DNA from: Geodia barretti
Taxonomy: Eukaryota
Assembly: GCA_030341885.1 (NCBI GenBank)
Contig: CASHTH010004028.1
Coordinates: 18,733-82,732 of the forward strand
Reading direction: 5' to 3'
DNA: 64,000 nt
Numbering within the stretch: position 1 is the first letter of the stretch; each line of letters opens with the position of its first letter. Position numbers and translations under genes: made by a program. Shown here piece by piece: positions 3,992 through 39,825 of the stretch. The notes under the pieces are model-generated. The model was not told the origin of the DNA and made no database searches. It worked only from the letters and a program-made list of their open reading frames with translations.

Positions 3992-5353
3992 TCAAGCAGC
4001 CATGAACGATTCAAGGTCAAAATAGTCTGGATCAAAGCTTGAATCACTTCCAACGGAGAAGGGAGACAGCATCTTTTCCAGCTCTGAATCTGTCATGTCT
4101 GAGAAGTTGGCTACGAGACAATCATTAACAGGGGCAGAGTCAATAATAACAGGGGAGGTGGCAGTAGACTCTGGTATGAGGGGAAATGGAACGGAATCGG
4201 AAAAACTGTCACTGGATGATGAGAACATGGGCGGGGTCAGTAGGGGGCTGGGGTTCAGAATATGGCTATCGGGTTCCAGTTGGATTGGTGGGTCCCCCAC
4301 CACAATTGGCCCCTGATTGGTCCCCCCTGGTTGGCCCAGGTCATGTGACTGGGAACCAATGTCGACATCAGCGGCCAGTGCTGATCCACCTGATGCGATG
4401 ATGTCATGCCAGGAGTAATCTTGCAGCAGGTGAAACAGAGAATCAAACTATAGACACAAAGAAAAAGTGACTCAAAATGGTAAAGGACGAAGGCTTCTGA
4501 GCTCACTTCACTGTCACCAGGACTCGAGCAAAGAGATCCCCCAGTATCCGCTTCTGCTGCAGAGAAGTGAAAGGTACTGCTGACCCGGATACCGAGGATG
4601 TCCTCTCTGACAACTTGAGTGAGCTGCCGTTACTACTATTGGCTGAGGTGGAGGTGGAGGTGGTGTGGTGTGACTGCTGCTGGACAAGCTGAATCTCCAG
4701 TTCCTGTTTCATAACATCTGTTTTCTGTCTGAGTGCCAGGTTTTCCTGCTGGAGCCTCTCATTCTGTAATGCACCAGTGAAACATCATCTTATCCTCACA
4801 CATCCTAAGTGTACCTTTCGACATGCTTGGCCAAGTACTACATACGTACATACCTTGGCTTCAAGTTCTGCCACTCTTCTTTCCAAGTCCTCAACATAGT
4901 TTTTCCTACGGTCTCTGGCGTTCTGAGCTGCTATCCTGTTCATCAGTTTTCTGTGTCCACAAAAGAAAAGCAAAGTGTGATTTACCGGAGCCGGAGACTA
5001 ATGAAAACACACCTTTTCTCCCTCTTCTGATCATCCGTCAGCTCCTCACTCTCTCCCCTCTTCCTCTTCCTCCCGCTGTAGCGTGGAACCTGTTGATTTT
5101 GTTCGAGCGAGGACGGAGGAGGGCTCCCCGAATGACGCTTCAGCGGTGAACAAGCACTGTCCGGAGAGCCAGCTTGCTGCGGCGGTAGATCGTGAGGTCT
5201 CGGCTGAACCACCGCACACGGTGTTTTCCTCGCAGCGCCGTTCTTGGCCAGGAGCCGTAGACAAAGTAGGAGTAGTTCAGGAGTTAGCTTCGTCAGCGCA
5301 GCCGCAGCGGCGACACCGGCCTTGGATTTGTACATTTCAGCTTGATCCTCCAT
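3992..5353 (-). CDS. XBP1: X-box binding protein 1 (bZIP, unfolded-protein-response), left-arm copy; span runs from the ATG to the stop of the spliced-form C-terminal frame
   Basis: Exon 1 is 5013-5353 (MEDQAEMYKSK...RKRKRGESEELTDDQKREK). Exon 2 is 4854-4950 (RKLMNRIAAQNARDRRKNYVEDLERRVAELEAK, the bZIP basic region). Exon 3 starts at 4763 (NERLQQENLALRQK..). The C-terminal frame ends ...SPFSVGSDSSFDPDYFDLESFMAA, resembling the XBP1s activation-domain terminus. The W-rich alternative frame 4255-4506 resembles the XBP1u tail. Confidence 0.8.
4548..4586 (-). other. XBP1: Candidate IRE1 unconventional splice site pair in XBP1 mRNA: two 7-nt loops CAG|CAGU and CUG|CAGC flanking a 20-nt intron (4560-4579)
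   Basis: Minus-strand sequence is gggtCAG|cagtacctttcacttctctg|CAGCAGaagcgg. The 3' site has a cuucu/agaag stem with loop CUGCAGC, identical to the vertebrate 3' loop. The 5' site has a ggu/acc stem with loop CAGCAGU. The right-arm copy at 40606-40644 has a 19-nt version. Confidence 0.6.
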
Positions 5354-5690: not shown

Positions 5691-7573
5691 ATGGATATAA
5701 CCGCTCTTGCTGAGACTTTCACTACCTTTCTTCTCGAGTGCACATCAAAGAGCAGGTCCCAAAAAGGGTCTTTCGACTACGAGCTGAAAATTGGCGAGAG
5801 AAACGTGGCTATTTCTGCCACCCTCCTACCTCCACTTGTTCGTTCCCCATTCTCCGAGATAACTGGTCCCCTCCCCTGCCCCACTGTGGTGCTGGGATCT
5901 CCACACCACCAACAAGATAGGGAGAAGGAAGAAGATGAGTCCCCGGAACTGAGGCCAATTCTTGACCAGTTTTCTAATTCATTTCTCGTTGAGGACTCCC
6001 GTCGCGAAAGGAAAGAGGGAAGAAAAGAGGTTGGACGAAATAAACAGGATCCTGTTCAAGTTTCAGAGAAAAGAGCGATTTTTCTTGGTTCGAAGCTGTT
6101 CCGAAAACGGGTGTACCTAAAACAAGAATCCCGTTCCACCCTAGAAGAGTCACAGTCTGTTGTCAGACAAGCTAATCTCGGTGGACTCGCTCCACTTTCA
6201 CTCGACCTTGCTCCGAGGCTTTGCCTCCTATTACCCTCGTTGGGAGTAGATTGCAGGAAGCGGGGACTTACCACTCGGCCCTTTGGGTACCTTGTACACA
6301 CACCCGAAGGAGCTGTCCAGGAAGATATTGTGGGGCTAGGATGCACACATGAGCCTGAAGGAGGAGGGTTTACTGTGTGCGAGAGAGAGGGGCGGGAGAG
6401 GCTGGAGCAAAGAGGGACCGGGCATGAAAATTACACCGGGCGACTTACAAGGAAATGCGTTTGCCAGGTATGCCATCACGTCTTTTGAGATTTGCTCAAC
6501 TGGTTGCGAGGCAGGGATGATGGTGGAATTTTCTTGGGACAACCCGGAAACCTTTTCTCTCTCCACCACCCGTGTTTGGCACGGAGGGTGTGCTCCATAT
6601 TGCGGTTGGAGCCTGGGAATCTTCAGGCCACTATCTCGACGTTTTCAGAGCTGCAGACTCTTGTCGGGTGTGTGTGAGGCGGTGTGCGATGGGAGGAATG
6701 GTGGGGGCGATTTCCCAGAGGAAGAGGGAGAGGAGGTGCTTACGAAACGAGAGGAACCTTTGCTCATTAACAGAGTGGATGATTTCCTGGAGGCGATTGA
6801 CTCTCCGCTGTCACACACGCTGCAAGTCAACGTTGTCTCGCCATCCCTCGAGAACACCGTTTTCCAGCAGAGGGAAAATCTCGACTTCACAGAGAACCTC
6901 TGGCTTTTTCTAAAAGATGTTCGGAGCCCGGAAGATCTAGAAGCCACCCTGGGAGCAATCTTCAAGGCGTTTTTACTCGGAAGGGTGCGCAATGTGACAT
7001 TTCGCGAGACTAGCAGATCCCCCTTGGCCAAACTCTTGCGCGAGCTCCTAAGCTGCAATTCAGACGCCGAGCGGCAGGTACTTGCTCCGAAGTTCCAACT
7101 CCTTCTCTTACCCAGTAGGTTGCTGCAAACCCTGGCCCAGATTGGGGTTGATAAGTTGAGGCTGGATCTCAGGGTGTTCCTGATTGCAGCCAAGGTGACG
7201 AGCGAGGCTGAGATTGCCAGCTTTCTCGGCGACGGTGAAAATCTTCTGCACCAGTGTCATTCCCTCTGCAACCTTTTCCACGTTGTGGAACTTGTGGGTA
7301 CGGCCATAAACTACCATTGTCTCCCACCACCCTCTCTCATGGCACTCGCAAAATCAGCGATGGATTCTACGTCGGAGACTCCCTTTCGTTGGGTTTGAAG
7401 CCACACCGTTGTTTTCGGTCGCCCTGCCGCAAAGTTCGACTGTCTCAGACCTGTCATTGACATGTGTGTGTCGGGAGTGGGACTCTGGGACTGTGACGTT
7501 ACGTTCAAGCTGCGAGACAGAATGATCATGCTGAGAGCTGGTGTATAGCTGGAGGGAATCAGAAACGTCATGA
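5691..7573 (+). pseudogene. ZWILCH: ZWILCH homolog, left-arm copy, single exon, broken into overlapping frames by many small indels relative to the intact right-arm copy
   Basis: ORFs 5691-6488, 6349-7398 and 6572-6913 are frame-shifted pieces of the 37597-39489(-) protein. For example the left copy reads LDLAPRLCLLLPSLGVD where the right copy reads LDLARAFASYYLVGSRLQESGTLPALWVPC. Confidence 0.5.
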
Positions 7574-10700: not shown

Positions 10701-13700
10701 ACCTCCAACAGCAGCAGTCTCAGTTGAGTGGCGGCGTCTCCTACTCCGTCTCGGGCTCTAACATGGCTGGAGTCAACCCTGCAGGTACTTACATGGTATT
10801 ACATAATAGTATCGGGGTCCCAGTCTTAACCCATTTTTTAAAGGAGGCATGCGGGGACGCTCTCAATAACGTGAAATCTAAATAGAGTTTTGGCTCTCTC
10901 TCAAAAAGTACTTACAAGACATGCAAAACAGTTGCACGTAATAGTTAATCTTTGTTCAAAGTTGCTATCTTCACTTGAGACCCAGAACAATAGCATAGCA
11001 CTGGATAATGCTGAAAACTTGAGAGAAAAGTGCATTCTCCAACCCATAAATTTGACTGTTTGGAATAGTGTGAATATCATATTGCAGCTATGCATGTAGT
11101 ATATACTGTGCTACATCAATGGTAGGTGGTCATTGAGACAAGTGTGGTGCTTGCACGCATTTATAGGAACAGTCTCTGTTCTTCCCATGTTGCCCGATAT
11201 GTTTTCCTTTTGTTGTGGATGTTCTGCCAGTATTCACTTCCTTTCAGGTCTGACTCACTTACAAACATGCTCACCCCTCCCCCTGAGCATTCCAGTCTCT
11301 TCGAAACACGTATTAGAGCATTCCACCTTCCTCTCTCTCTGTCTTCCCGTCTGTCCCTCCCCCTCGTTTCCCCTCTGTTTCTTCCTCTTTCCGCTCGCTT
11401 TCTCCCCCTTCCCACTCCCTCATTTCTCTCTCCCCCCTCTCTCCCTCTTCCCACTCCCTCATTTCTCTCTCCCCCTTTTCCCCCTATCTCCCTCCTCTCT
11501 CCCTCTTCCCACTCCCACATTTCTCTCTCCCCCCTCTCTCCCTCTTCCCACTCCCACATTTCTCTCTCCCCCTCCTTCTATGTACAGGTATGGGTATGAC
11601 TCGCCCCATGCAGCAGATGCAGCAGCCGGGTGGAGGAGGAAGCTACCAGACCTACCAGCAGGGAGGAGGGACCGCCCAGCAGATGCACCCCACCCAACAC
11701 CCTCACTATTCTCCCCACATGCACCGCACAGTGGGCGGGTCAATGCAGCATGGAATGCAACCGGGAATGCACCCCACCCAACGACCAATGATGGCAGGGG
11801 TTGCTCAGGGAATGGTACACGGTGGACCATATGGACACGCCCAACACCCAATGAGTGTACACAACTACCCACAGGTGAATTCACCATCCTTATAAATAAA
11901 AAACCTTGCAGCACAATAGCAATTTTTGTGAAGGAAACACAGTTGAATGAGTGCGTAATGCGCTGAACGTCCAGATATGTTTTGGGTGCAAGTTATGGGG
12001 TATATACAGCATGTCTCAACAACTTGGTAACGAGGTAGAAAGGCAAGGCAAGGCAAACAAGTGAACTACATGTACCTTTTCCCGATTGATGTCCTTTCAA
12101 TGTTTGGATGCCAACAGGTGCAAGGGTTCAATGGGTCGGAATGTACAGTACGCGCGTTGTGGTTATTTGGCTTGCATTCCTAGAGACCTTTCTCGCTAAC
12201 TACTTCATGTCTCTCTTTGCTCACGCACACTCTTTATTTCTTTCCCTTCCTTTTGTCTCTCCCTCCATATTTCCCCCTCCCTCCTCCTCCTTTCTCTCTC
12301 TCCAGAACGTAAACTATCAGTCCACACTTCAACCCGTGATGTCTGTAGCCAACCAGATGCACGGAATGGGGATACCGCAGCGCCAACCCTCAATCAACCC
12401 CTCTCTAATGAGACCCCAGCAGGGACCGATGGGGCGCGGAATGCCGGGGATGGCCGGGGGAGGCATGATGCAGCAGCACAGCGGGCCTGGGGCGATGGCG
12501 ATGACGATGGGAGAGGGGAATGGGGATGGGGGGAGGATACCGGCGGGGATGGGGAGGGTGGGCGGAGTGTACGGAGGACCGATGGTCCAGCAGGTTCAGA
12601 CTGGGTTACGTCAGACATCATGGGAGTGTCCAGCCGGTGATGGCGGTCCCAAACCCTCCTACCTCCCTGCTTCTTTCCGTCGGGGGATAAGACAGCCTGC
12701 ACCTCCATATGACTCTGTCGGGTGAGCATCATATAGAATCACATGATGACTCTGTAGGGGTGGGCATCATATAGAATGACTCTGTAGGGGTGAGCATCAT
12801 ATAGAATGGAGTGCACTTTGAGAATCTACCAGACTTACTTGAAGCTGTGTAATAGAGATGGATCATAAACCATATAAAGTGAAGTCCTTTTAGATTTGTG
12901 TGCTTACCTATGGTATATGCTGTTGCGCTTTGTTTTTGCTGCAGCGACTGCTGTGTGCACCTGTGTAGCTATCCCACCCCTTCGTTTATTTTGTGCACAC
13001 ACATGCACGTGCGCACACACCCACACAGCCTCCAGCCTCCAGCAGTGCAGTCTCCAACCCCTCAGCCGCCACCTCCTCGTCCAATGCTCCCTCTCTCCCT
13101 CCCGCTTCCTCCGCTCCACCCTCCTCCTCTTCCTCCCAGCCACAGTCATCTCTCCCTCACCCCCACCCTCCTCCCTCCACCTCAGCCTCAGCTACTGCCA
13201 TGAATTATCTACAGGTATAAAACATACTTCTATTACAATACATTATTTGTCATAAGTCAAGACGACAATTGGTTAGGTAACAGTGTTGTGGTGTTTAACT
13301 TTGACCCATTGAAATTAATGCAAGTTCTTGTTGTATGCATGTGCGCAAGGGGCTGTGTGGCGATGCAAACGCAGCCCGGCACAAGACTACTGCATCATAA
13401 CTGAAGCTAGCAGAAGCGCACGGAAGAATGTAAGCCAGGCTGCGCAAAACTCAATCAGTGCATAGCATCATTGTATTGTTTGCTGTTGTACTACGTTCAT
13501 TATCAGAACATGTTGCGAAGCTGGTTGTTCTCTGCCCTGTGTTTGTAAGTTATCATCCCATTACGAACTCACCTGTCATCTTCCAGTCGCAGCCTGTCCC
13601 ATCGCCTGCCCCTCCTCCCACTCCACTCCTCCCTGCCTCCCCGGCAACCAGCATCGGAAGCCCCGCCCACTCCACGGTCACTCCGGAAGAAAACGAGGCG

Positions 13701-15402: not shown

Positions 15403-15559
15403 CATTCATTCCCCTCCTTCCCCTTTCTCCTCATTTTCCTTCCCTCCCAACCTCCTTCACTCCTGATGCCTGTGTAATTATATACTCCCATACGCATGAA
15501 CTCTTTTCTCTCTCTCTCCTTTCTTCTCTTCATTTGGCATAATGCATGTTTGCCCCTCT

Positions 15560-18188: not shown

Positions 18189-21100
18189 TTAAGCATAACA
18201 AAAGTATACTGTTGTAAAAGCTATCGTGTTGTCAAGGCTTTGAGTCATGATCTGAGAGGCATAGAGTATGTGGACCCGAACCAGGTCCAGCTGCTCTCTG
18301 ACAAGGTCCCAGCTGCCACCCCACTCCATGGCCGCAAAGATGGCATCAGACACACCGGGAAACAGAGAGCTGCCGTACTGGTTGACTGAGCTGGGCGCAT
18401 AAACCACATGCCTGCATAGGAGACGGAAATTCACACAATACCTAATACACCCACAACAACATGTGTGCTCCAATTTTCAGTTTTCTATATAGCCAGACCC
18501 TCAACTTTCTTTGGACCCTAAAGGCTCTCCCACCTCTGTCTATAACCATCTCTAACTTGTAGTAAGGTCTTCCAGGGAGACCCTCTGGTACAATGAAGGC
18601 TCTCTCCAACTGCATCAGTTGATCGTTGAGTCTCCTGACACGACTGAGGTCACTGGGGTCACCTGACACCTTCTGTAACTCCTCCCACAGACATTCGGCG
18701 GACATCGTGAACTCTCTGATGGAGCTGTTGAGGTAATCTGTATAATAGAGAAAGTCATCTGGAGGATGGGTATGTTCATAAATTGCCTGTGTGGGTGACA
18801 AAAAAGAGGAAAAACTTGTTGGGAAGTCTAACACAGAAAAATGTAGTGGGAAATCAGCGAATTAAATTCATGAGTTTCGTTCTCATAAAAGTAACCATTT
18901 AAGGGAGGATCAAATTATTACTCATCAAGAGAGAGGGGGAGAAAGAGAGAAAGGGCTGAAGGAACCTACCAAGACTTATGTTCTGGGAAGACAGAACCTC
19001 TCCATACTCTTCCACCAATCCCGCCATGATGTTTGTGAGTGCAGTGGAGTAGTCTCTGGGGTCGTAGGGGAGGACGGGGGAGGTGGCAAGAGAGAGGGCC
19101 ACCTTACCCCACACCAGACCCACGGCTGTGTGGTGGGAGAAGGATGGGTCCGTCAGGTTGGCCTCGTAGAAGAAGTTGTCGTGGACTGAGTGATACACTG
19201 GGTACCCTATGGGGTCCTATACAGAGAGAGAGAGCAGAATAAGCAATGAAACACAAATTTTCCTGAAGTGTGTACTGATTCTTAGTGTGCGTAAGGTTCA
19301 GAGCATGCTATATACTAGAAGATCAAAGGGGAAAGAAAGAGAGGGAATCTTACAAAGTATCTGTAGTTCATGTCAGAGCAGGTGATGCCAAAACCTTGCA
19401 GGAAGGAGGTATAGTCACTGCCTGAGCCAAGACCAGGGACTCTGTAGAGGAGAGGAGACAGTGGCTGGAGCTGTCACCAGGAGACAGTGGAGGACTAGAG
19501 TCAACTCACTGAGGAGCGCTGTTGGTGGGGTTTGGTTGGTAGTGGAGCCACTCGTCATAGACTGTGGCAAAACCTTTGTTGGGGCACTTGGTCTACAGAG
19601 ACACAACTCAATAAGACAGCGTATTAATAAAAGCACTCTCACTGTTTTGGTTGCAGTGTAGATAGGCTGGATGAGAAGTGGGGTGGCAGCAGCATTGAAA
19701 GAGTATATCCCTGTGATATACAGAGAGAAATTGGGTGTTTATCCCGACCCACAAATTTTGCAGAGAAAATTATCAATCTGCATAATATTAGCTAGAAATC
19801 TTTAGCTGTAGACTGTAGACTAGCTTTACCATCAATGGCAACATCCACATTCAGGTAGGCTACAGCATTGGCTCCCAGGATCTTTGCATGTTCCTTCAGA
19901 GGAGAAGAAAGAGGAAAGTCTGAGTGGTCACATCATGTGGTGGTGCCACAGTATGTATCGATACCTCAGTCCATTCGTAGGATCCAATCAGTCCATATTC
20001 CTCTGCATCCCAACTGCAGAGGAGAATGGTTCGACCTGGTCTCCAGTCTGGGGACAGACAGAGAGAGAGATGAGCACCTTCACCGTGACACCCAGTCTGG
20101 TGACTGCGGTCCAGGGGGCTCTGACCTTTGCTGCGGAGGTCACTGAGAGCTCTGGCCAGCTCCATGAGTACTGCAGTCCCAGAGTTTGGGTCCACTGCTC
20201 CAAATGTCCAGGCATCGTGGTGGTTACCCAGCAGAACGTAGCGATCTGACAGACAAACAGGCAAAGGAAAAGAAAATAGCCCCAGAGCACATAGCTACAA
20301 CAGTGTTCTCATATTCAGTGTGGAGTTTGTCTAAGGCAAAGGCCGTGACACAGAAGGCAAAGAGATGGTTCAGTGACTAACCTGGCTCCACTGATCCATA
20401 CACTGTAGCAATGACATTAGTGATGTTCCTATGAACCAGGTAGTTGTTGACTTCAAGATACGTCTCACTGCAGCAGACGCACAGAGACTAAAACCCCCTC
20501 TCTTCCTTCCTCCCTCCCTCCATACTTTGTGTTGTTGGGTGACTGGAGGATGTAGTAGCAGGACAGGTTCAGCTGACCAGTCCAGTTGAGGTTGACAGGG
20601 GCTCGGTACTCAGTCAGTTGGCTGCAACAATACACATGAAACACTCAACCACTAGACAGCAATAGCACAATTCTCTGCATCACTAAATCTCGAGCTATAG
20701 TAGAAGATTCAACATGTTATAGTTAATCTGTCAAACTTCATGAAGTGGATGGCATCTCCATAAGAGATGGGTTGTACTGGGATACTGGGAGCGTATCCTT
20801 TCTTCACCACATCTTCCTCATAGTCTCTCCTGAATATCCCTGGAATTGCAGGGACCCCCGGAGTCAGGGGGTCGCCGTTTCTCTGGAACAGTGATCCTCG
20901 TTGCACCCCGGAGGGTGGGAGACTGGTGCCGTTGGGGAAGACCAGGGGACCACCTCTGGGGGCATAATCCGCGGGGTCAGAGTAGATGATGACTCCAATA
21001 CCCCACTTTGCTCTGCCAGGTAGGCCTACAGGTCAACATGGGACACACTCAATAGCTAGATGGGGAAAACCTTTTGAAGGGAAACATTATGCACAGTTTG

Positions 21101-22460
21101 GTAAACATTTGCAGCAAAATGTTTTTCTTAGAAAAAATTGGCACAGTGATCCCAATAGCCAAATTCTTTGCTAGTTTTATAGTATGCACAAAGCAAATGA
21201 AACTCCATTAGTGACATGACAATTTGGATGGTAAAATTTGCACTCTTTCAGTATTGAGGGTAACCTTATCTCCACGGTAGATTTTTCCATAGCGTATGAT
21301 GCAGACGTATCCGTCCAGACTGATATTGAGAGTAGTGTTGAGATAGTAAAAGTCCTCCAGTCTACCATAGTTAACATACACCAGAGGACCCTGCCAATAG
21401 AAAGAGAGAGATGGTAACAGGTGAAGATATGTGGTCCAGTGGTTGTCTTACAGAGACGTTCCCAGTGCCAGAGTAGGCATTAAAAGGAGGAGCGACGGAG
21501 GGATCTCTCTCCTGTGGCAGCAGAGGTTTCTCCTGGCGGGTAGCTGCAGTGTAGACCACCTTCCCCCCCGACTCCCGCAGCTCCAGTCTGTTGGGACTAC
21601 TGCTGTTCCCTGGGTACTGCAGCAGGACCGTGTAGTTGGCCAGCTCCACTCGGTCAAAGGTCTTGTAGCCCTTCCAGCGATTGTAGATCAACATGGCCAC
21701 TTCCATATCACTGACATTGCCCGCGATGTGAGGTTTCTCTGTCAGCTCCCTGCATCAGGACGCACAATAATCACAGGGTTTTCTTATAACAACGCATTGC
21801 CATCATTATCCTCCCTCAGTGCCTACAACCAAACTACCTAGACATTATTTTCAGTTATGTTCACTGCCGGGAAACGCTTGGGCTTTTCAGTAATTTACCA
21901 CAGTCTTTAAAGGAAACCCTAAGCAGGTATGCCACAAATGCTGCAGTCAAGGCCTTTTAATTGATGAACCTCAGCCTCTTTCTAAGTCCTATAGCTGCGA
22001 AGCTCCTTTGTTATTTCCTTGGATGCTGGAAAGTGGCTAAAAGGTTAATGTGCTTGGACAATTATTAGACTGAGAGCTTTTTTGGCTACCTGTGCAGATC
22101 TAAAGAGGTAGCTATACCTCAGGTTTTCCTTGATGTTCTCAGGCTGTAGCTCAGCATCCAGCCATTCAGTCACGGGCACCGTTTTACCTCCGCTCAACGT
22201 CACGTTCCCGCCCCAGTTTGGAAGAGTGCTGGACGCGCGTTACTGCACGAAGCGTTCACGCTCGCAGAGCTTGAAGAGCCGTAGATTACTTTCCCCGCGA
22301 GCAGGCCCCCTGCGAACCCAGCTCCTAACAGCAGGACCGTGACCACCACCGTGGTGCAGACGAAGACCGCTGCCACCGGCCATTTCTTCCTCTCCCCGCG
22401 CCCCGGGGCCTTGATGACGGTGGGATCGAGGAGGTCTCTGTCTTCTCCGCTATCGTCCAT
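18189..22460 (-). CDS. Glutamate carboxypeptidase II / NAALADase-like (transferrin-receptor-like M28 peptidase) paralog A, 15 exons, mirror of paralog B but with its own first exon
   Basis: Exon 1 is 22117-22460 ([11 protein letters not shown] helix [44 protein letters not shown]), with one internal frame break. Downstream exons mirror copy B and carry the GCPII motifs [132 protein letters not shown]. The stop is TAA at 18189-18191, five codons later than copy B because of a TAC/TAA difference. Confidence 0.8.
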
Positions 22461-23319
22461 CTCTCTGTCTTGCCTGCCAATCTCCGGGTCGATCGTCTGA
22501 TGCTCGGGGCGGCCGGGGGGCGTGCACCCCGTCTAGCTCGTGATACAACGCACATGCGCATGCGCAAATGTCTCAAACGCGACGACGTCGGCTAGTAGTG
22601 TATAGTGTGCGCGATGCGGTGAGACTCCTCTACACAACATACAGCTTTTTGCGCACTGTTTTGTAAAGCAGTGCAGCACATGGACGCCAGGGCTGAACGC
22701 AGTGAAGAGATGGTTCCGCTCCAGGAAGAGTCTGCATACGACGGTGCCGGTCGTACATCGTCCCCGTCCCACGACGTCTGCAAGTTCGTGTGCGGGCTCT
22801 TCGTGATCACACTGCTGGTGACGGCCCTATTCGGCGGGGGTTTATTTACTGGCTACGGCGCTATCTGCGATCGTCATCGGACGTGCAAGTGCACTGGGGG
22901 TGCAAATTCCGTAACTGCGAAATGGGGAGGAGAAGTCAACGGAACGGGGAGTGGGACGGCCGTTCCTGTGTCGAAATGGCTAGACGACGAGATGAAAGCT
23001 GGAAATATTAGAGAGAATCTAAGGTTTGGCACGGCTACATGAACATTGATTATTGATTATTGGTGCATTACTTATCGTGACTGCATGTTTCCAAGGAGCT
23101 TTTACTGAGAAGCCCACAGACCGAAATGTCAAACCGTATAGAGAATATTCCATAGATATTAATTTTGTATTGGTGCATTACTTATCGTGACTGCATGTTT
23201 CCACTGAGAAGCCCACAGGCAGAAATGTAAGGTTTGGCAAACCGTATATAGAAATTCCATAGATGTTTTTGTAGAATCAATAACTAACATATGGTTTTAA
23301 AAGCCCTGAACTATGACAA
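21771..23319. other. Asymmetric central spacer of the palindrome; holds the two divergent first exons and shared 5' region of the head-to-head peptidase genes
   Basis: The reverse complement of 23043-23319 does not match 21771-22140. The two exon-1 ORFs (22200-22460 minus, 22671-23042 plus) encode different proteins of the same architecture. Confidence 0.85.
22461..22679. promoter_or_regulatory. Shared bidirectional promoter of the head-to-head peptidase paralogs; contains a tandem CATGCGCATGCGCA with a perfect GCGCATGCGC (NRF-1 type) palindrome at 22557-22566
   Basis: Divergent ATGs at about 22460 (minus) and 22680 (plus). GC-rich, with no TATA visible. Confidence 0.5.
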
Positions 23320-26300
23320 CCGGATTATTGTGCGTCCTGATGCAGGGAGCTGACAGCGAAACCTCACATCGCGGGCAATGTCAGTGATATGGAAGTGGCC
23401 ATGTTGATCTACAATCGCTGGAAGGGCTACAAGACCTTTGACCGAGTGGAGCTGGCCAACTACACGGTCCTGCTGCAGTACCCAGGGAACAGCAGTAGTC
23501 CCAACAGACTGGAGCTGCGGGAGTCGGGGGGGAAGGTGGTCTACACTGCAGCTACCCGCCAGGAGAAACCTCTGCTGCCACAGGAGAGAGATCCCTCCGT
23601 CGCTCCTCCTTTTAATGCCTACTCTGGCACTGGGAACGTCTCTGTGAGGACAACCACTGGACCACATATCTTCACCTGTTACCATCTCTCTCTTTCTATT
23701 GGCAGGGTCCTCTGGTGTATGTTAACTATGGTAGACTGGAGGACTTTTACTATCTCAACACTACCCTCAATATCAGTCTGGACGGACACATCTGCATCAT
23801 ACGCTATGGAAAAATCTACCGTGGAGATAAGGTTACCCTTAATACTGAAAGAGTGCAAATTTTACCATCCAAATTGTCATGTCACTAATGGAGTTTCATT
23901 TGCTCTGTGCATACTATAAAACTAGCAAAGAATTTGGCTATTGGGATCACTGTGCCAATTTTTTCTAAGAAAAACATTTTGCTGCAAATGTTTACCAAAC
24001 TGTGCATAATGTTTCCCTTCAAAAGGTTTTCCCCATCTAGCTATTGAGTGTGTCCCATGTTGACCTGTAGGCCTACCTGGCAGAGCAGAGTGGTTGTATT
24101 GGAGTCATCATCTACTCTGACCCCGCGGATTATGCCCCCAGAGATGGTCCCCCTGGTCTTCCCCAACGGCACCAGTCTCCCACCCTCCGGGGTGCAACGA
24201 GGATCACTGTTCCAGAGAAACGGCGACCCCCTGACTCCGGGGGTCCCTGCAATTCCAGGGATATTCAGGAGAGACTATGAGGAAGATGTGGTGAAGAAAG
24301 GATACGCTCCCAGTATCCCAGTACAACCCATCTCTTATGGAGATGCCATCCACTTCATGAAGTTTGACAGATTAACTATAACATGTTGAATCTTCTACTA
24401 TAGCTCGAGATTTAGTGATGCAGAGAATTGTGCTATTGCTGTCTAGTGGTTGAGTGTTTCATGTGTATTGTTGCAGCCAACTGACTGAGTACCGAGCCCC
24501 TGTCAACTGGACTGGTCAGCTGAACATGTTCTACTACTGCATCCTCCAGTCACCCACCAACACCAAGTATGGAGGGAGGGAGGGGGGAAGAGAGGGGGGT
24601 TAAGTCTCTGTGCGTCTTCTGCAGTGAGATATATCTTGAAGTCAACAACTACCTGGTTCATAGGAACATCACTAATGTCATTGCTACAGTGTATGGATCA
24701 GTGGAGCCAGGTTAGTCACTGAACCATCTCTTTGCCTTCTGTGTCACGGTCTTTGCCTTAGACAAACTCCACACCGAATATGAAAGAACACTGTTGTAGC
24801 TATGTGCTCTGGGGCTATTTTCTTTTCCTTTGCCTGTTTGTCTGTCAGATCGCTACGTTCTGCTGGGTAACCACCACGATGCCTGGACATTTGGAGCAGT
24901 GGACCCAAACTCTGGGACTGCAGTACTCATGGAGCTGGCCAGAGCTCTCAGTGACCTCCGCAGCAAAGGTCAGAGCCCCCTGGACCGCAGTCACCAGACT
25001 GGGTGTCACGGTGAAGGTGCTCATCTCTCTCTCTCTGTCTGTCCCCAGACTGGAGACCAGGTCGAACCATTCTCCTCTGCAGTTGGGATGCAGAGGAATA
25101 TGGACTGATTGGATCCTACGAATGGACTGAGGTATCGATACATACTGTGGCACCACCACATGATGTGACCACTCAGACTTTCCTCTTTCTTCTCCTCTGA
25201 AGGAACATGCAAAGATCCTAGGAGCCAATGCTGTAGCCTACCTGAATGTGGATGTTGCCGTTGGTGGTAAAGCTAGTCTACAGCTAAAGATTTCTAGGCC
25301 ATCATAATTTTCTCTGCAAAATTTGTGGGTCGGGATAAACACCCAATTTTTCTCTGTATATCACAGGGGTATACTCTTTCAATGCTGCTGCCACCCCACT
25401 TCTCATCCAGCCTATCTACACTGCAACCAAAACAGTGAGAGTGCTTTTATTAATATGCTGTCTTATTGAGTTGTGTCTCTGTAGACCAAGTGCCCCAACA
25501 AAGGTTTTGCCACAGTCTATGACGAGTGGCTCCACTACCAACCAAACCCCACCAACAGCGCTCCTCAGTGAGTTGACTCTAGTCCTCCACTGTCTCCTGG
25601 TGACAGCTCCAGCCACTGTCTCCTCTCCTCTCCTCTACAGAGTCCCTGGTCTTGGCTCAGGCAGTGACTATACCCCCTTCCTACAAGGTTTTGGCATCAC
25701 CTGCTCTGACATGAACTACAGATACTTTGTAAGCTTCCCTCTCTTTCTTTCCCCTTTGATCTTCTAGTATATAACATGCTCTGAACCTTACGCACACACT
25801 AAAAATCAGTACACACTTCAGGAAAATTTGTGTTTCATTGCTTATTCTGCTCTCTCTCTCTCTGTATAGGACCCCGTAGGGTACCCAGTGTATCACTCAG
25901 TCCACGACAACTTCTTCTACGAGGCCAACCTGAGGACCCGTCCTTCTCCCACCACACAGCCGTGGGTCTGTGTGGGGTAAGGTGGCCCTCTCTCTTGCCA
26001 ACCTCCCCCGTCCTCCCTACGACCCCAGAGACTACTCCACTGCACTCACAAACATCATGGCGGGATTGGTGGAAGAGTATGGAGAGGTTCTGTCTTCCCA
26101 GAACATAAGTCTTGGTAGGTTCCTTCAGCCCTTTCTCTCTTTCTCCCCCTCTCTATTGATGAGTAATAATTTGATCCTCCCTAAATGGCTACTTTTATGA
26201 GAACGAAACTCATGAATGTAATTCGCTGATTTTCCTCATTTCCCCACTACCATTTTTCCTGTGTTCGACTTCCCAACAAGTTTTCCCTCTTTTTTGCCAC

Positions 26301-26960
26301 CCACACAATACCCATCCTCCAGATGACTTTCTCTATTATACAGATTACCTCAACAGCTCCATCAGAGAGTTCACGATGTCCGCCGAATGTCTGTGGGAGG
26401 AGTTACAGAAGGTGTCAGGTGACCCCAGTGACCTCAGTCGTGTCAGGAGACTCAACGATCAACTGATGCAGTTGGAGAGAGCCTTCATTGTACCAGAGGG
26501 TCTCCCTGGAAGACCTTACTACAAGTTAGAGATGGTTATAGACAGAGGTGGGAGAGCCTTTAGGGTCCAAAGAAAGTTGAGAGTCTATTACAAGAAAAAG
26601 GATATAATTATAGAAAAGGGCCATACGTACATACGTACATACGTACATACGGTGTCTCACGTATCATGGAATTTGCACACCATTTGAAAATTGTAGCACA
26701 CATGTTGTTGTGGGTGTATTAGGTATTGTGTGAATTTCCGTCTCCTATGCAGACATGTGGTTTATGCGCCCAGCTCAGTCAACCAGTACGGCAGCTCTCT
26801 GTTTCCCGGTGTGTCTGATGCCATCTTTGCGGCCATGGAGTGGGGTCGTAGCTGGGACCTTCTCAGAGAGCAGCTGGACCTGGTTCGGGTCCACATACTC
26901 TATGACTCTCAGATCATGACTCAAAGCCTTGACAACACAATAGCTTTTACAACAGTATAA
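22680..26960 (+). CDS. Glutamate carboxypeptidase II / NAALADase-like paralog B, 15 exons
   Basis: Exons 22680-23023, 23346-23643, 23706-23831, 24071-24361, 24477-24566, 24625-24710, 24849-24968, 25049-25131, 25203-25266, 25367-25434, 25485-25567, 25641-25728, 25870-26114, 26344-26524, 26753-26960. Phases are consistent except for single-nt frame breaks in exon 4 (a run of 5 C at about 24170) and exon 13. The first exon encodes ..[26 protein letters not shown] (TM helix) ..[17 protein letters not shown]. Confidence 0.8.
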
Positions 26961-29759: not shown

Positions 29760-32700
29760 TCAGAACTGGGAAGAGAGGGCCTTGAGAAGGCTGGTCTCCC
29801 AGCTGGACAGCAGGAAGGAGAGGGTGTAGCTGTCACAGCAGCAGGCCAGGGTGTCCGCCAGAAGCTTCCCGACCTCCGAGAGGAGCGGGGTGGGGTCTCC
29901 TCCCCCGTACGACTCCAGGTCACACTCCGGGGAGTAGTCGGGGTACCCCGGAGGAATACGGACGGTTAGCGAGGGGACTTTGGGCAGGTCCTCATCCACT
30001 GTGTGAACAGAAATCAGAATCTTTACGATGGTATAATAATATAGTAGTGCACTTTTTTCGTTTTTGTTGGTCATAAAATTTGATTTTCGTCCTTTGTTGG
30101 TTGATATTCGTCTCTTGTTGGTCTAAGCACAAGCGCAAACAATGCAAATTGTAGTCTAGACGAACCTCAACTGTAGAAAATCAAAACGCAAGACCAACGA
30201 AAAAAACTGCGAGAAACAGAAACGAAAAGTGCACTGCTGGAACAAATTAATAGTTTTCCCATATTATGGGATACTCTGACATTATTATGTGCACACAACG
30301 AGGAGAAGGAGTAAAGAGGAGAGGGGGAGGAAGAGAAAAGAGGAGAGGGGGAGGAAGAGAAAAGAGAGAGGGGGAGGTAGAGAGAAGAGACGAGAGGGAG
30401 GAAGAGAAAAGAGGAGAGGAGGAAGAGAAAAGAGGCGTGGACTGACCGATGCTGCACTCTAGCATGGTCCCTCGGGTCTGCTCCTCCTGGGGGAGTGGGT
30501 GAACTTTGAACCCCACCAGATGGGCAATCTCTCTCCTCAGACAGAGAGATATTGCTGGCTCAACTGTGGGAGAGCAGAATAGTAGAGTGAACATCAATAA
30601 CAACCCAAGTAGCAAGAGGGGCATACTAGCAACACTATGAGCTTTTCTCAGACAAACTTTAGCATTAAATCGGTGGTATCACGGACCACGTTTTTGTCCA
30701 CAAACAGTACACGATGTATACACAACACAACACACCATTAAACCTGTAGTGTAATGTATCAACAAACCCTACCTCTATTGCACATCCTCTTGGAGGGAGG
30801 AAGACGGTCAGCGGGGAACGGATGTGAGCGGACAGTACATGTCTCTATGAGGTTCCCTAGTGTTGGGGTCGGTGAAGGAATCATTTTGAACTCTAGTAGC
30901 GACTGAGATTTTGGCTCCGGGAGGGGTTTGGTTGAGGGGTCGACGAGGGTGTGGTTCGCTGCGGACGAGGTCGCAGGGGGCGCGGGGGCGACGGAAGGGG
31001 GGTTGGAGGGAGGCGGCTGCGAAGAGGTGGAGTCCAGGTGTTCTCTCAGCTGCTGCTGCTCAAACATCTTCTCAAGGGCCGTCTTGCATTTTATGAGAGT
31101 CGGGAGAGGGACCCTGTGTGTCGCATTTTTGGTCATGGTTAGTTCGTGTACACTTAAATTCATGTTTGTTTACGCCTACTTGACAATGTAGCAAAATGCT
31201 AAGTTTAGAGGGGGCATTCTGTGGGTGTGGACTATTGTAAAGTTTCTTTTCGCCAGATATCCGTTCTTCTAAACGCCTCGCTCGACAGTAGCATGAACAT
31301 ACAGTAGTGAAATTCAGAAAAAGAAAGCAAATTTAAAAATATAAGGACAGAGAAAACGGAAGGAGAAGAGAGAGTGGTGAGAGGAGAAAGTCACCTCTTC
31401 TTGTCGTCCTGCAATAAACTGTGGAGGCTCTTGAGTTTCATATACTGCTCTGACTTGTGGGCGTCTTCACCCTCTTTCTTCAGTGTGCGGTTCATCATGC
31501 GAGTGAGGAGCGGGAGGTAGACCTGGAGCTCGTGGTGCGTCCGAAGGTACGCCTCGTTTTCTTCCGGAGTGACCGTGGAGTGGGCGGGGCTTCCGATGCT
31601 GGTTGCCGGGGAGGCAGGGAGGAGTGGAGTGGGAGGAGGGGCAGGCGATGGGACAGGCTGCGACTGGAAGATGACAGGTGAGTTCGTAATGGGATGATAA
31701 CTTACAAACACAGGGCAGAGAACAACCAGCTTCGCAACATGTTCTGATAATGAACGTAGTACAACAGCAAACAATACAATGATGCTATGCACTGATTGAG
31801 TTTTGCGCAGCCTGGCTTACATTCTTCCGTGCGCTTCTGCTAGCTTCAGTTATGATGCAGTAGTCTTGTGCCGGGCTGCGTTTGCATCGCCACACAGCCC
31901 CTTGCGCACATGCATACAACAAGAACTTGCATTAATTTCAATGGGTCAAAGTTAAACACCACAACACTGTTACCTAACCAATTGTCGTCTTGACTTATGA
32001 CAAATAATGTATTGTAATAGAAGTATGTTTTATACCTGTAGATAATTCATGGCAGTAGCTGAGGCTGAGGTGGAGGGAGGAGGGTGGGGGTGAGGGAGAG
32101 ATGACTGTGGCTGGGAGGAAGAGGAGGAGGGTGGAGCGGAGGAAGCGGGAGGGAGAGAGGGAGCATTGGACGAGGAGGTGGCGGCTGAGGGGTTGGAGAC
32201 TGCACTGCTGGAGGCTGGAGGCTGTGTGGGTGTGTGCGCACGTGCATGTGTGTGCACAAATAAACGAAGGGGTGGATAGCTACACAGGTGCACACAGCAG
32301 TCGCTGCAGCAAAAACAAAGCGCAACAGCATATACCATAGGTAAGCACACAAATCTAAAAGGACTTCACTTTATATGGTTTATGATCCATCTCTATTACA
32401 CAGCTTCAAGTAAGTCTGGTAGATTCTCAAAGTGCACTCCATTCTATATGATGCTCACCCCTACAGAGTCATTCTATATGATGCCCACCCCTACAGAGTC
32501 ATTCATGTGATTCTATATGATGCTCACCCCGACAGAGTCATATGGAGGTGCAGGCTGTCTTATCCCCCCGACGGAAGAAGCAGGGAGGTAGGAGGGGTTT
32601 GGGACCGCCATCACCGGCTGGACACTCCCACTGATGTCTGACGTAAACCCAGTCTGAACCTGCTGGACCATCGGTCCTCCGTACACTCCGCCCACCCTCC

Positions 32701-37596: not shown

Positions 37597-39489
37597 TTAC
37601 AAGTGACTTGATACACATGACGTTTCTGATTCCCTCCAGCTATACCACCAGCTCTCATCATGATCATTCTGTCTCCAGCCTTGGACGTAACGCTCCACAG
37701 TCCCCAGAGTCCCACTCCCGACACACATGTCAATGACAGGTCTGAGAACAGTCGAACTTTGCGGCAGGGCGACCGAAAACAACGGTGTGGCTTCAAACCC
37801 AACGAAAGGGAGTCTCCGACGATAGAAATCCATCGCTGATTTTGCGAGTGCCATGAGAGAGGGTGGTGGGAGACAATGGTAGTTTATGGCCGTACCCACA
37901 AGTTCCACAACGTGGAAAAGGTTGCAGAGGGAATGACACTGGTGCAGAAGATTTTCACCGTCGCCGAGAAAGCTGGCAATCTCAGCCTCGCTCGTCACCT
38001 TGGCTGCAATCAGGAACACCCTGAGATCCAGCCTCAACTTATCAACCCCAATCTGGGCCAGGGTTTGCAGCAACCTACTGGGTAAGAGAAGGAGTTGGAA
38101 CTTCGGAGCAAGTACCTGCCGCTCGGCGTCTGAATTGCAGCTTAGGAGCTCGCGCAAGAGTTTGGCCAAGGGGGATCTGCTAGTCTCGCGAAATGTCACA
38201 TTGCGCACCCTTCCAAGTAAAAACGCCTTGAAGATTGCTCCCAGGGTGGCTTCTAGATCTTCCGGGCTCCGAACATCTTTTAGAAAAAGCCAGAGGTTTT
38301 CTGTGAAGTCGAGATTTTCCCTCTGCTGGAAAACGGTGTTCTCGAGGGATGGCGAGACAACGTTGACTTGCAGCGTGTGTGACAGCGGAGAGTCAATCGC
38401 CTCCAGGAAATCATCCACTCTGTTAATGAGCAAAGGTTCCTCTCGTTTCGTAAGCACCTCCTCCCCTTCTTCCTCTGGGAAATCGCCCCACCATTCCCTC
38501 CCATCGCACACCGCCTCACACACCCCGACAAGAGTCTGCAGCTCTGAAAACGTCGAGATAGTGGCCTGAAGATTCCCAGGCTCCACCGCAATATGGAGCA
38601 CACCCTCCGTGCCAAACACGGGTGGTGGAGAGAGAAAGGTTTCCGGGTTGTCCCAAGAAAATTCCACCATCATCCCTGCCTCGCAACCAGTTGAGCAAAT
38701 CTCAAAAGACGTGATGGCATACCTGGCAAACGCATTTCCTTGTAAGTCGCCCGGTGTAATTTTCATGCCGTCCCTCTTTGCTCCAGCCTCTCCCGCCCCT
38801 CTCTCTCGCACACAGTAAACCCTCCTCCTTTCAGGCTCATGTGTGCATCCTAGCCCCACAATATCTTCCTGGACAGCTCCTTCGGTGTGTGTACAAGGTA
38901 CCCAAAGGGCCGGTAAGGTCCCCGATTCCTGCAATCTACTCCCAACGAGGTAATAGGAGGCAAAAGCTCGAGCAAGGTCGAGTGAAAGTGGAGCGAGTCC
39001 ACCGAGATTAGCTTGTCTGACAACAGACTGTGACTCTTCTGGGTGGAACGGGATTTCTTGTTTTAGGTACACCCGTTTTCGGAACAGCTTCGAACCAAGA
39101 AAAATCGCTCTTTTCTCTGAAACTTGAACAGGATCCTGTTTATTTCGTCCAACCTCTTTTCTTCCCTCTTTCCTTTCGCGACGGGAGTCCTCAACGAGAA
39201 ATGAATTAGAAAACTGGTCAAGAATTGGCCTCAGTTCCGGGGACTCATCTTCTTCCTTCTCCCTATCTTGTTGGTGGTGTGGAGATCCCAGCACCACAGT
39301 GGGGCAGGGGAGGGGACCAGTTATCTCGAGAATGGGGACGAACAGTGGAGGTAGGAGGGTGGCAGAAATAGCCACGTTTCTCTCGCCAATTTTCAGCTCG
39401 TAGTCGAAAGACCCTTTTTGGGACCTGCTCTTTGATGTGCACTCGAGAAGAAAGGTAGTGAAAGTCTCAGCAAGAGCGGTTATATCCAT
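37597..39489 (-). CDS. ZWILCH: ZWILCH (kinetochore RZZ complex subunit) homolog, right-arm copy, intact intronless ORF of 630 codons from MDITALAETF
   Basis: A single 679-codon open frame, 37597-39636, with the likely start Met at 39489. It carries conserved Zwilch blocks LPALWVPC, NLDFTENLWLFLK..DLEATLGAIFKAFLLG and LLLPSRLLQTLAQIGVDKLRLDLRVFLIAAKV. Confidence 0.75.
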   Translation of the reverse strand: MDITALAETFTTFLLECTSKSRSQKGSFDYELKIGERNVAISATLLPPLFVPILEITGPLPCPTVVLGSPHHQQDREKEEDESPELRPILDQFSNSFLVEDSRRERKEGRKEVGRNKQDPVQVSEKRAIFLGSKLFRKRVYLKQEIPFHPEESQSVVRQANLGGLAPLSLDLARAFASYYLVGSRLQESGTLPALWVPCTHTEGAVQEDIVGLGCTHEPERRRVYCVRERGAGEAGAKRDGMKITPGDLQGNAFARYAITSFEICSTGCEAGMMVEFSWDNPETFLSPPPVFGTEGVLHIAVEPGNLQATISTFSELQTLVGVCEAVCDGREWWGDFPEEEGEEVLTKREEPLLINRVDDFLEAIDSPLSHTLQVNVVSPSLENTVFQQRENLDFTENLWLFLKDVRSPEDLEATLGAIFKAFLLGRVRNVTFRETSRSPLAKLLRELLSCNSDAERQVLAPKFQLLLLPSRLLQTLAQIGVDKLRLDLRVFLIAAKVTSEAEIASFLGDGENLLHQCHSLCNLFHVVELVGTAINYHCLPPPSLMALAKSAMDFYRRRLPFVGFEATPLFSVALPQSSTVLRPVIDMCVGSGTLGTVERYVQGWRQNDHDESWWYSWRESETSCVSSHL

Positions 39490-39825
39490 CTCTCCGCCAC
39501 TCTCTCTAGCTCTAGCATGCTTTTTGCGATGCGCGCGCATGTGCTTTCGCACCAAACTCGCGCCAAATTCTCTAGCAGGCACATGACTCGCTCCACCAAT
39601 CAGATTGTGACAAATCAGCACGTTTGCATCATGCAAGTTTCGTCATCCCCGGACCGACCGCGACCGAGCAGCAAAACAAAGAAGACTACAAAAGGCTGGA
39701 AGATCGGTGGCTCCCTAGCCGTCCTCGGAGGCAGATGTCCTGAAATGGAGGCATAGCATAGAAGAAAGTAGCTAACAAAAAACAATGAAAACCCTCTGTG
39801 AAAAACCTCACCCTGTGGTCGAATC

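Follow-up and report, generated by a model that had tools for sequence, protein, structure and literature searches.

Our analysis concerns a pair of genes in the sponge Geodia barretti, found in a window of 64,000 nucleotides (nt), by which we mean the whole stretch of DNA analyzed (assembly GCA_030341885.1, contig CASHTH010004028.1, positions 18,733 to 82,732 of the forward strand); positions are given in window coordinates unless another locus is named. The locus consists of two head-to-head paralogous genes for a putative type II membrane M28 metallopeptidase of the GCPII/NAALADL-like kind, which we call the minus and the plus gene after the strands that encode them. Their bodies lie in the two arms of a large inverted repeat and their first exons in the asymmetric spacer between these arms. 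When G. barretti is compared with two related sponges, exon 1 groups by type, whereas exons 2-15 and their introns group by species, and we therefore read the locus, with a probability of roughly 85%, as an old duplication whose copies have evolved in concert through arm-to-arm gene conversion.

An asymmetric spacer holds two different first exons

An inverted-repeat scan finds one large palindrome in the window, the arms of which end on the inside at 21772 and 23323, 1,550 nt apart, and a blastn comparison of the two halves of the window aligns 4-21772 with 45275-23323. When the spacer is compared with itself, inverted similarity never exceeds 15 nt and the sole repeat is a tandem duplication within plus intron 1; the center of the palindrome is therefore truly asymmetric. 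An earlier, sequence-only reading of this DNA had placed the asymmetric segment at 21771-23319, which is correct to within 2-4 nt, and had described in it two distinct N-terminal first exons, each encoding a tail, a transmembrane segment and the motif WLD..ENI(K/R)ENLR. Both descriptions hold, and the two exon types are intact in three species. The central features of the locus are the following.

21773-23322, no strand: asymmetric spacer, with both first exons, both first introns except for their last 23 nt, and the shared intergenic region
22118-22460, minus strand: minus-type exon 1, encoding a tail with the candidate acidic dileucine EDRDLL, a transmembrane segment and a Ser-rich stalk; ends in phase 2; frame broken in the window
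22680-23023, plus strand: plus-type exon 1, encoding a tail with EEMVPL, a transmembrane segment and a Cys-rich stalk (C..CKC); ends in phase 2; open reading frame (ORF) intact
21750-22117, minus strand: minus intron 1 (GT...AG), with only its last 23 nt (21750-21772) inside the arm
23024-23345, plus strand: plus intron 1, with only its last 23 nt (23323-23345) inside the arm; carries a local tandem duplication
Minus strand: minus exon 1-exon 2 junction, ...ACATCAAGGAAAACCTGAG/GGAGCTGACAGAGAAACC
Plus strand: plus exon 1-exon 2 junction, ...AATATTAGAGAGAATCTAAG/GGAGCTGACAGCGAAACC
18189-21749, minus strand: exons 2-15 and introns of the minus copy, encoding the PA, Peptidase_M28 and TFR_dimer ectodomain; stop 5 codons later than in the plus copy
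23346-26960, plus strand: exons 2-15 and introns of the plus copy; frameshifts in exons 4 and 13

The ORF of plus exon 1 opens with MDARAE at 22680 and closes with AG/GT at 23023/23024; that of minus exon 1 opens at 22460 and closes with AG/GT at 22118/22117. Both first exons end in phase 2, the last G of an Arg codon being supplied by exon 2, which starts at 23346 in the plus gene and at 21749 in the minus gene. The copies become identical 23 nt 5' of exon 2, at GATTATTGTGCGTCCTGATGCAG/G, and farther upstream the first introns cannot be aligned. Eleven nucleotides into exon 2 the arms can be told apart, with GCG at 23357 in the plus copy versus GAG at 21738 in the minus copy. Aligned with each other, the plus and minus exon-1 proteins of one species share about 35% of their amino acids, that is, they are homologous but distinct.

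Plus intron 1 has some peculiarities of its own. Its tandem duplication comprises 23058-23093 and 23168-23203, and through this duplication the 12-nt donor-site sequence TAAGGTTTGGCA occurs twice, at 23020-23031 and 23228-23239. The opening of the intron, about 12 nt long (GTTTGGCACGG), is conserved in three species, yet it forms a weak donor.

The encoded peptidase resembles GCPII

Mapping of the spliced cDNA contig L001 to the window yields a gene of 15 exons, the number that had been proposed from the sequence, and protein, domain and structure matches place it in the M28/GCPII family. The best protein matches of a draft translation are NAALADL1/GCPII-like proteins of the sponges Ephydatia, Amphimedon and Halisarca (46-55% identity), and the close homologues P0001-P0006 bear PF02225, PF04389 and PF04253 (PA, Peptidase_M28 and TFR_dimer). 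The nearest non-sponge animal homologues are 42-50% identical, and identity to human GCPII is roughly 40-45%, a figure estimated from these non-sponge homologues and not directly computed. Human GCPII is also the best solved structure (E = 5e-152), with GCPIII and NAALADL1 among the top matches and the transferrin receptor (TfR) far behind. In the alignment with GCPII chain 4mcs_A, YPVYHSV stands opposite YPLYHSV, and GGHRDSW/IDPQSG, SWDAEEFG and YINAD are matched and conserved as well. From general knowledge of GCPII we take these motifs to hold the zinc ligands and catalytic residues; on this assignment the co-catalytic zinc ligands and the catalytic Glu appear to be conserved, as in an active enzyme rather than a TfR-like receptor.

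Homology of the ectodomain to solved structures starts only at the very end of exon 1. The exon-1 peptides of both types have a basic or acidic tail of 25-35 amino acids followed by a hydrophobic run of about 23, an arrangement that suggests a putative type II topology with a short N-terminal tail and a single transmembrane segment. At the other end of the protein the two copies in the window differ (18189-18206 and 26958-26960), in that a TAA-to-TAT change extends the minus copy by 5 codons.

First exons group by type and gene bodies by species

The comparison of three species comprises the window and two loci, L004 and L005, from related sponges with separate long-read assemblies in ENA. The plus exon-1 peptide of the window matches ORFs on a 222-kb contig (66% identity) and a 38-kb contig (57% identity), which hold L004 and L005, respectively. 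Both loci contain the same head-to-head pair, with inverted arms 90-97% identical and a spacer with one intact exon 1 of each type. Their gene bodies on either side of the spacer match Peptidase_M28 and TFR_dimer, the exon lengths equal those of the cDNA in both copies, and the plus gene bodies are without frameshifts. Phase-2 GT donors are conserved at both exon-1 types in all three species. Between species, plus exon 1 is 72%, 58% and 56% identical at the amino acid level and minus exon 1 67-71% identical. The ratio of nonsynonymous to synonymous divergence (dN/dS) is 0.22-0.30 for plus and 0.22-0.34 for minus exon 1, at dS values of 0.56-1.33 overall and 0.67-1.09 for plus, showing both types to be under purifying selection. 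The flank of the minus gene is the same in all three species. Because both exon-1 types are orthologous across the three species and the minus-gene flank is shared, the duplication predates the species split, and the similarity of the copies within species does not stem from a recent duplication.

The gene bodies have the opposite affinities. With introns included, the two copies are 96.5%, 94.8% and 92.3% identical within the three species, and bodies of different species are 75-81% identical over much shorter alignable lengths. For coding exons 2-15 the within-species values are 98.5%, 98.9% and 96.9%, compared with 83.6-88.4% between species, and at third codon positions of these exons they are 94-98.5% versus 71-79%. 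Substitution divergence between the paralogues in the window amounts to 1.33% in exons and 1.72% in introns. Among the three species, no plus-plus or minus-minus orthology signal was found in the gene body. The proposal that exons 2-15 have been homogenized between the copies is thus upheld, and it extends to the introns. That purifying selection on what is a conserved enzyme fold, and not conversion, keeps two old and slowly evolving paralogues alike is hardly credible, given that introns are as alike as exons within species and unalignable between species, that third codon positions diverge so much more between species than within them, and that the gene body lacks any orthology signal by type. 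Independent recent duplications, which we considered as a source of the within-species identity, are ruled out by the combination of exon 1 grouping by type with bodies grouping by species.

In the window the homogenized tract begins 23 nt 5' of exon 2, and in the two related species about 95 and about 20-35 nt 5' of it. The outer limit in L004 falls a few codons short of the stop, the two proteins ending in ...IMARFT and ...IMAQTSYHHRSNSNSATTGGDREL (4170-4190 and 15415-15500 of that locus). Plus intron 1 of L004 also holds, at 10888-10947, a 60-nt relic of the intron 1/exon 2 junction (TTGTGATGCAG/GGAGCTAACAAAGAAACCTCACATAGCGGGCAAT...), about 200 nt before the real exon 2, probably left behind by an unequal exchange that took place earlier at the edge of the tract.

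The concerted-evolution reading implies the following history. An inverted duplication of the whole gene would have taken place in a common ancestor of G. barretti and at least two related sponges, after which the copies would have corrected each other repeatedly by non-allelic, arm-to-arm gene conversion. The corrected tract would run from the last 20-100 nt of intron 1 through the end of the gene or beyond, so that exons 2-15 and their introns would stay near-identical. The central segment, made up of the promoter region, exon 1 and most of intron 1, would have escaped conversion and diverged into two conserved types. The outcome would be two proteins with the same catalytic and dimerizing ectodomain that differ in cytoplasmic tail, membrane anchor and stalk.

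Extent of the palindrome arms

Outside the peptidase genes, the arms contain further genes.

4-21772, no strand: left arm of the inverted repeat, clipped by the window start; holds the peptidase gene, a downstream membrane-protein gene (about 16.0-18.1 kb), Med15 and Zwilch (5691-7398, ORF split)
23323-47233, no strand: right arm, mirroring the left; holds second copies of the downstream gene, of Med15 (30759-31163) and of Zwilch (37597-39636, intact)

Because the left arm reaches the window start, its outer edge is not visible, and the end of visible arm identity at 45275 is merely the mirror of that start. L016, a flank from the sister species, is colinear with the left arm and, mirrored, with the right arm. 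Where L016 extends past the window start it matches 47233-45500, so that the right arm reaches at least 47.2 kb, and the outer arms, with the duplicated Zwilch and Med15, extend over at least 24 kb. On the 222-kb contig of the sister species, Zwilch is single and lies on the minus-gene side only. The right flank of L004, downstream of the plus gene, gave no tblastx matches to the window. A true downstream flank of the plus gene was not found in the window by blastn either, the sole match being 144 nt at 58.8-58.9 kb in the wrong orientation, probably a repeat, and Pfam scans of the ORFs at 45-58 kb were uninformative.

The G. barretti assembly was made from PacBio continuous long reads (CLR; RSII/Sequel) with metaFlye and a single round of Pilon. 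It exceeds the measured genome size, and its authors suspect uncollapsed haplotypes (PMC10542158). The arms differ at 748 places, 381 of which are 1-nt indels, mostly outside homopolymers. These indels are concentrated in patches at 0-1.25, 3.75-5.25 and 7.25-10.25 kb (left-arm coordinates, mirrored in the right arm), separated by stretches of 100% identity; within patches, 10-35 mostly non-homopolymer 1-nt indels per 250 nt distinguish the arms. The patches look like unpolished CLR consensus in a repeat beyond the reach of short-read correction. Substitution divergence is 1.3-1.7% in the inner 6 kb or so and 0.2-0.45% farther out.

We consider it slightly the likelier account that the gene pair is real and that the arm sequence farther than some 6-7 kb from the spacer, with the second Zwilch and Med15, is not, Flye having run through the same flank again or through the other haplotype. 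The Zwilch flank is single-copy in the sister species, on the minus side only, and the plus-gene downstream flank there is unrelated. The mirror persists to at least 47.2 kb, beyond the mirror of the window start, and divergence falls outward, where patches of random 1-nt indels make up most of the differences. Should the window comprise the final 64 kb of the 82,732-nt contig, the palindrome center would also lie about 90 nt from the contig midpoint, although this argument rests on a presumed offset of the window in the contig. Set against this account, the short-read contig L006 is a mosaic of left-arm and right-arm blocks as far as 15.8 kb, pointing to two real copies at least 2.4 kb past the gene, and polishing failures and low divergence of this kind would also be seen in a real young palindrome. 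The outer arms may thus instead represent a much extended young palindrome in G. barretti. The spacer finding is unaffected by this question.

An outer arm boundary at about 16.5 kb, taken from the end of contig L006, was rejected, as L006 continues to 15.5 kb. Farther in, a cluster of indels, one of them 10 nt long, distinguishes the arms at 19774-19812 versus 25283-25303. Several independent short-read contigs start just inside this cluster (19837-19889), as expected if a real difference between the copies breaks the assembly graph.

Candidate promoter region and use of the two first exons

The segment between the two start codons contains the following features.

22461-22679, no strand: intergenic region and CpG-rich candidate bidirectional promoter; 219 nt between the ATGs, GC 0.57, observed/expected CpG 1.18
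About 22553-22568, no strand: NRF1-like palindrome TGCGCATGCGCAAA, within the intergenic region

The palindrome TGCGCATGCGCAAA lies 95-135 nt upstream of the plus ATG and is conserved in three species, as is the sequence TTTTGTAAA...GCAGCAC immediately 5' of the plus ATG, which L004 and L005 share. The distance between the ATGs is 219 nt in the window, 203 nt in L005 and, through an insertion, 1,269 nt in L004, and the observed/expected CpG ratio is 1.18-1.30. Repeated blocks and a 30-nt run of poly(A) in the intergenic region of L004 (8861-10129 of that locus) suggest that the insertion is a retroelement splitting the shared promoter region.

The two genes are probably transcribed divergently from this short CpG-rich region, with transcripts seen for the minus direction only. 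Minus-type spliced transcripts occur on two contigs of the Joint Genome Institute (JGI), one (L001/P0016) joining exon 1 to exons 2-15 and the other (P0129) covering exons 1-4. The 5' end of L001 maps to 22486; this transcript is 96% identical to G. barretti and has an open frame of 780 amino acids once one retained intron is removed. At the exon-2 site that distinguishes the arms, L001 and P0129 have E or D and not A, as expected of the minus arm. Retained introns are seen in both, namely intron 3 in L001 (835-1064) and read-through into intron 4 at the C-terminus of P0129, which suggests frequent intron retention or capture of pre-mRNA.

For the plus gene, a deposited gene model, CAI8052638.1 (P0124, 'N-acetylated-alpha-linked acidic dipeptidase 2 [Geodia barretti]', on the 82,732-nt contig), joins plus exon 1 to exon 2. 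The model, 1119 amino acids long, translates through shifted frames and is fused with the next gene downstream. The JGI metagenome contigs yielded nothing in a scan with back-translated plus exon 1 or with an exact 29-nt exon-2 pattern that every G. barretti copy has in common with the known minus transcript, and since this transcript was missed as well, this result is uninformative. Taken together, the conservation of plus exon 1, its donor site, the motifs upstream of it and the deposited model suggest that it is used in mRNA. The sequence-only reading had both first exons spliced to exon 2 and looked to two transcript classes differing in exon 1. For the minus type this stands on spliced transcripts, and that class alone was found; for the plus type the splice is supported by conservation and by CAI8052638.1.

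We judge it quite improbable that one first exon, most likely the plus type, is an untranscribed relic beside a single functional gene. Such a relic would fit the finding of spliced transcripts only for the minus type, and the N-termini of more distant sponge homologues do resemble that type. The plus ORF is nevertheless intact in three species and ends at a conserved phase-2 GT donor, and its dN/dS is low although dS reaches 0.67-1.09. In addition, conserved promoter and 5'-leader motifs precede the plus ATG, the exact ORF recurs on 11 contigs from different samples, and the plus gene bodies of L004 and L005 are free of frameshifts.

Independent support for the gene pair

The spacer with both of its junctions is present on at least 11 independent short-read contigs (L003 and L006-L015), and besides the window 11 contigs, drawn from different ENA metagenome samples, contain the exact plus exon-1 ORF; it is these, together with L003, that span the spacer. 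L010 spans 21698-23397 and reaches 75 nt into either arm, and L011 spans 21739-23356. Three of the contigs (L003, L008 and L009) run from about 19.85 kb across the spacer and end 34 nt into the right arm, which is the expected fold-back point of a de Bruijn graph. Where the arms of the window differ, the independent contigs are mosaics of left and right variants, with almost no third alleles. Because independent contigs span the spacer, and because two other species have the same pair, the core gene pair and its spacer are real and not an assembly error.

The idea that the entire palindrome, center included, is an artefact of a fold-back, a chimeric read or a join of inverted haplotypes, so that only a single peptidase gene exists, accordingly deserves next to no credence. 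The method and excess size of the assembly, with its suspected uncollapsed haplotypes, and the predominance of 1-nt indels among the arm differences speak for it. They are outweighed by an asymmetric spacer that encodes two different conserved first exons, by the contigs from other samples that hold this spacer with both junctions and mix the variants of both arms, and by the two gene bodies in separate long-read assemblies of two species, which are 92-95% identical and not identical. The sequence-only reading had taken the asymmetry itself to exclude a fold-back. Its conclusion stands for the core, on the evidence of the contigs and the two species; its argument goes too far, as asymmetry rules out a trivial hairpin only, and a real inverted repeat with an asymmetric center may likewise lead an assembler to fold back.

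Several frameshifts interrupt the genes in the window. A 2-nt CG insertion at 22234-22235 shifts the frame of minus exon 1; it is absent from the same-species contig L003, in which the exon is intact. Minus exon 4 has a 1-nt deletion at about 21003, plus exon 4 a 1-nt insertion at 24149, and plus exon 13 four 1-nt indels at 25933-26014. At every frameshift site that they cover, independent contigs and transcripts are in frame. The frameshifts are most likely consensus errors. Pseudogenization as their cause was rejected, in view of the in-frame contigs and transcripts, the different sites in the two copies and an assembly method that accounts for them.

A number of points weigh against our reading of two intact genes in concerted evolution. 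No conversion event was observed, and conversion is deduced from the pattern of similarity. The short-read contigs collapse both arms and so cannot show that both gene bodies are intact in G. barretti, and as both copies in the window carry frameshifts, pseudogenization in the sequenced individual is a less likely alternative to consensus errors. A plus-type transcript was not found, a search with the plus exon-1 peptide returning only genomic ORFs and CAI8052638.1.

Relation to known systems

The ampliconic palindromes of primate Y chromosomes have inverted arms around a unique spacer and undergo intrachromosomal non-allelic gene conversion. The inverted arms of the G. barretti pair similarly flank a unique spacer and are more alike within than between species. 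The sponge system differs in that its conserved core is small, with arms of about 4-6 kb and, in the sister species, a tract that amounts to one gene from intron 1 to the stop codon. Arm identity is 92-98%, compared with more than 99.9% in the Y palindromes. Moreover, the sponge spacer is not neutral filler but has the promoters and divergent first exons, the arm boundary cutting through the gene.

Linked paralogues that are converted over one part and diverge over another are known from the inverted Amy and Hsp70 pairs of Drosophila and from human RHD/RHCE. Gene conversion has also been reported for an inverted pair of Dlx genes in Capitella (PMC3199776). Like these, the inverted sponge paralogues are homogenized over part of their length. 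Unlike in these, the unconverted part is a complete module of promoter, tail, transmembrane and stalk exon, present in all three species in two orthologous versions, and none of them has its tract boundary more than about 100 nt from that same splice acceptor. The outcome, in which alternative N-terminal modules with their own promoters are combined with a common body, recalls the clustered protocadherins and UGT1A. In those clusters a single set of constant exons serves several first exons by splicing in cis, whereas the two sponge first exons, on opposite strands, are each followed by a separate copy of exons 2-15, and the sameness of these copies is kept by recombination; the sponge pair is not a member of that class. 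With GCPII (FOLH1), NAALADL1 and the transferrin receptor (MEROPS M28B) the sponge proteins share the set of PA, Peptidase_M28 and TFR_dimer; their short N-terminal tail and one hydrophobic segment would fit the type II topology of that family, and a sponge homologue has been treated as an ancient TfR relative, 'NAALAD2' (PMC7034838). Overall, the locus is a clear example of an already known process, region-limited concerted evolution of an inverted pair, and is not categorically new.

Possible roles of the two tails

The N-terminal tails had been said to remain distinct, and they do. The minus-type tail keeps E(E)DR(D/E)LL, which matches the acidic dileucine pattern [DE]xxxL[LI]; the corresponding sequences of more distant sponge homologues are DDKVLL and EAEDLL. 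The plus-type tail has EM(V/I)PL at that place, and its stalk has conserved cysteines (C..CKC) versus the Ser-rich stalk of the minus type. A putative acidic dileucine sorting motif is thus kept only in the minus type. In mammals the tail signals are MXXXL (GCPII) and YTRF (TfR), from which the sponge motifs differ. The tail differences may alter trafficking, and the identical TFR_dimer domains could permit heterodimers. One may speculate that the arrangement is adaptive, with selection keeping two trafficking or anchoring modules and conversion serving as a recombinational 'constant region' for the ectodomains, an idea that is tentative and, in our estimation, rather unlikely. If it were true, homodimers and heterodimers with different sorting could form, and the locus would represent an alternative-first-exon system made from a palindrome, its boundary held at the acceptor of exon 2 while sponge species diverged.

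For long-read assembly the locus carries a warning, as a small real inverted repeat can seed a far larger mirror-image contig, and an asymmetric center is no guarantee for the whole of a palindrome. For genome evolution it presents one gene pair with opposite histories across a single intron, exon 1 following the old duplication and exons 2-15 following the species. This makes the limits of conversion tracts testable, as a matter of loss of homology versus selection on the N-terminal module. For the GCPII/transferrin receptor family, it offers the hypothesis that an early-branching relative may display one ectodomain on two sorting tails.

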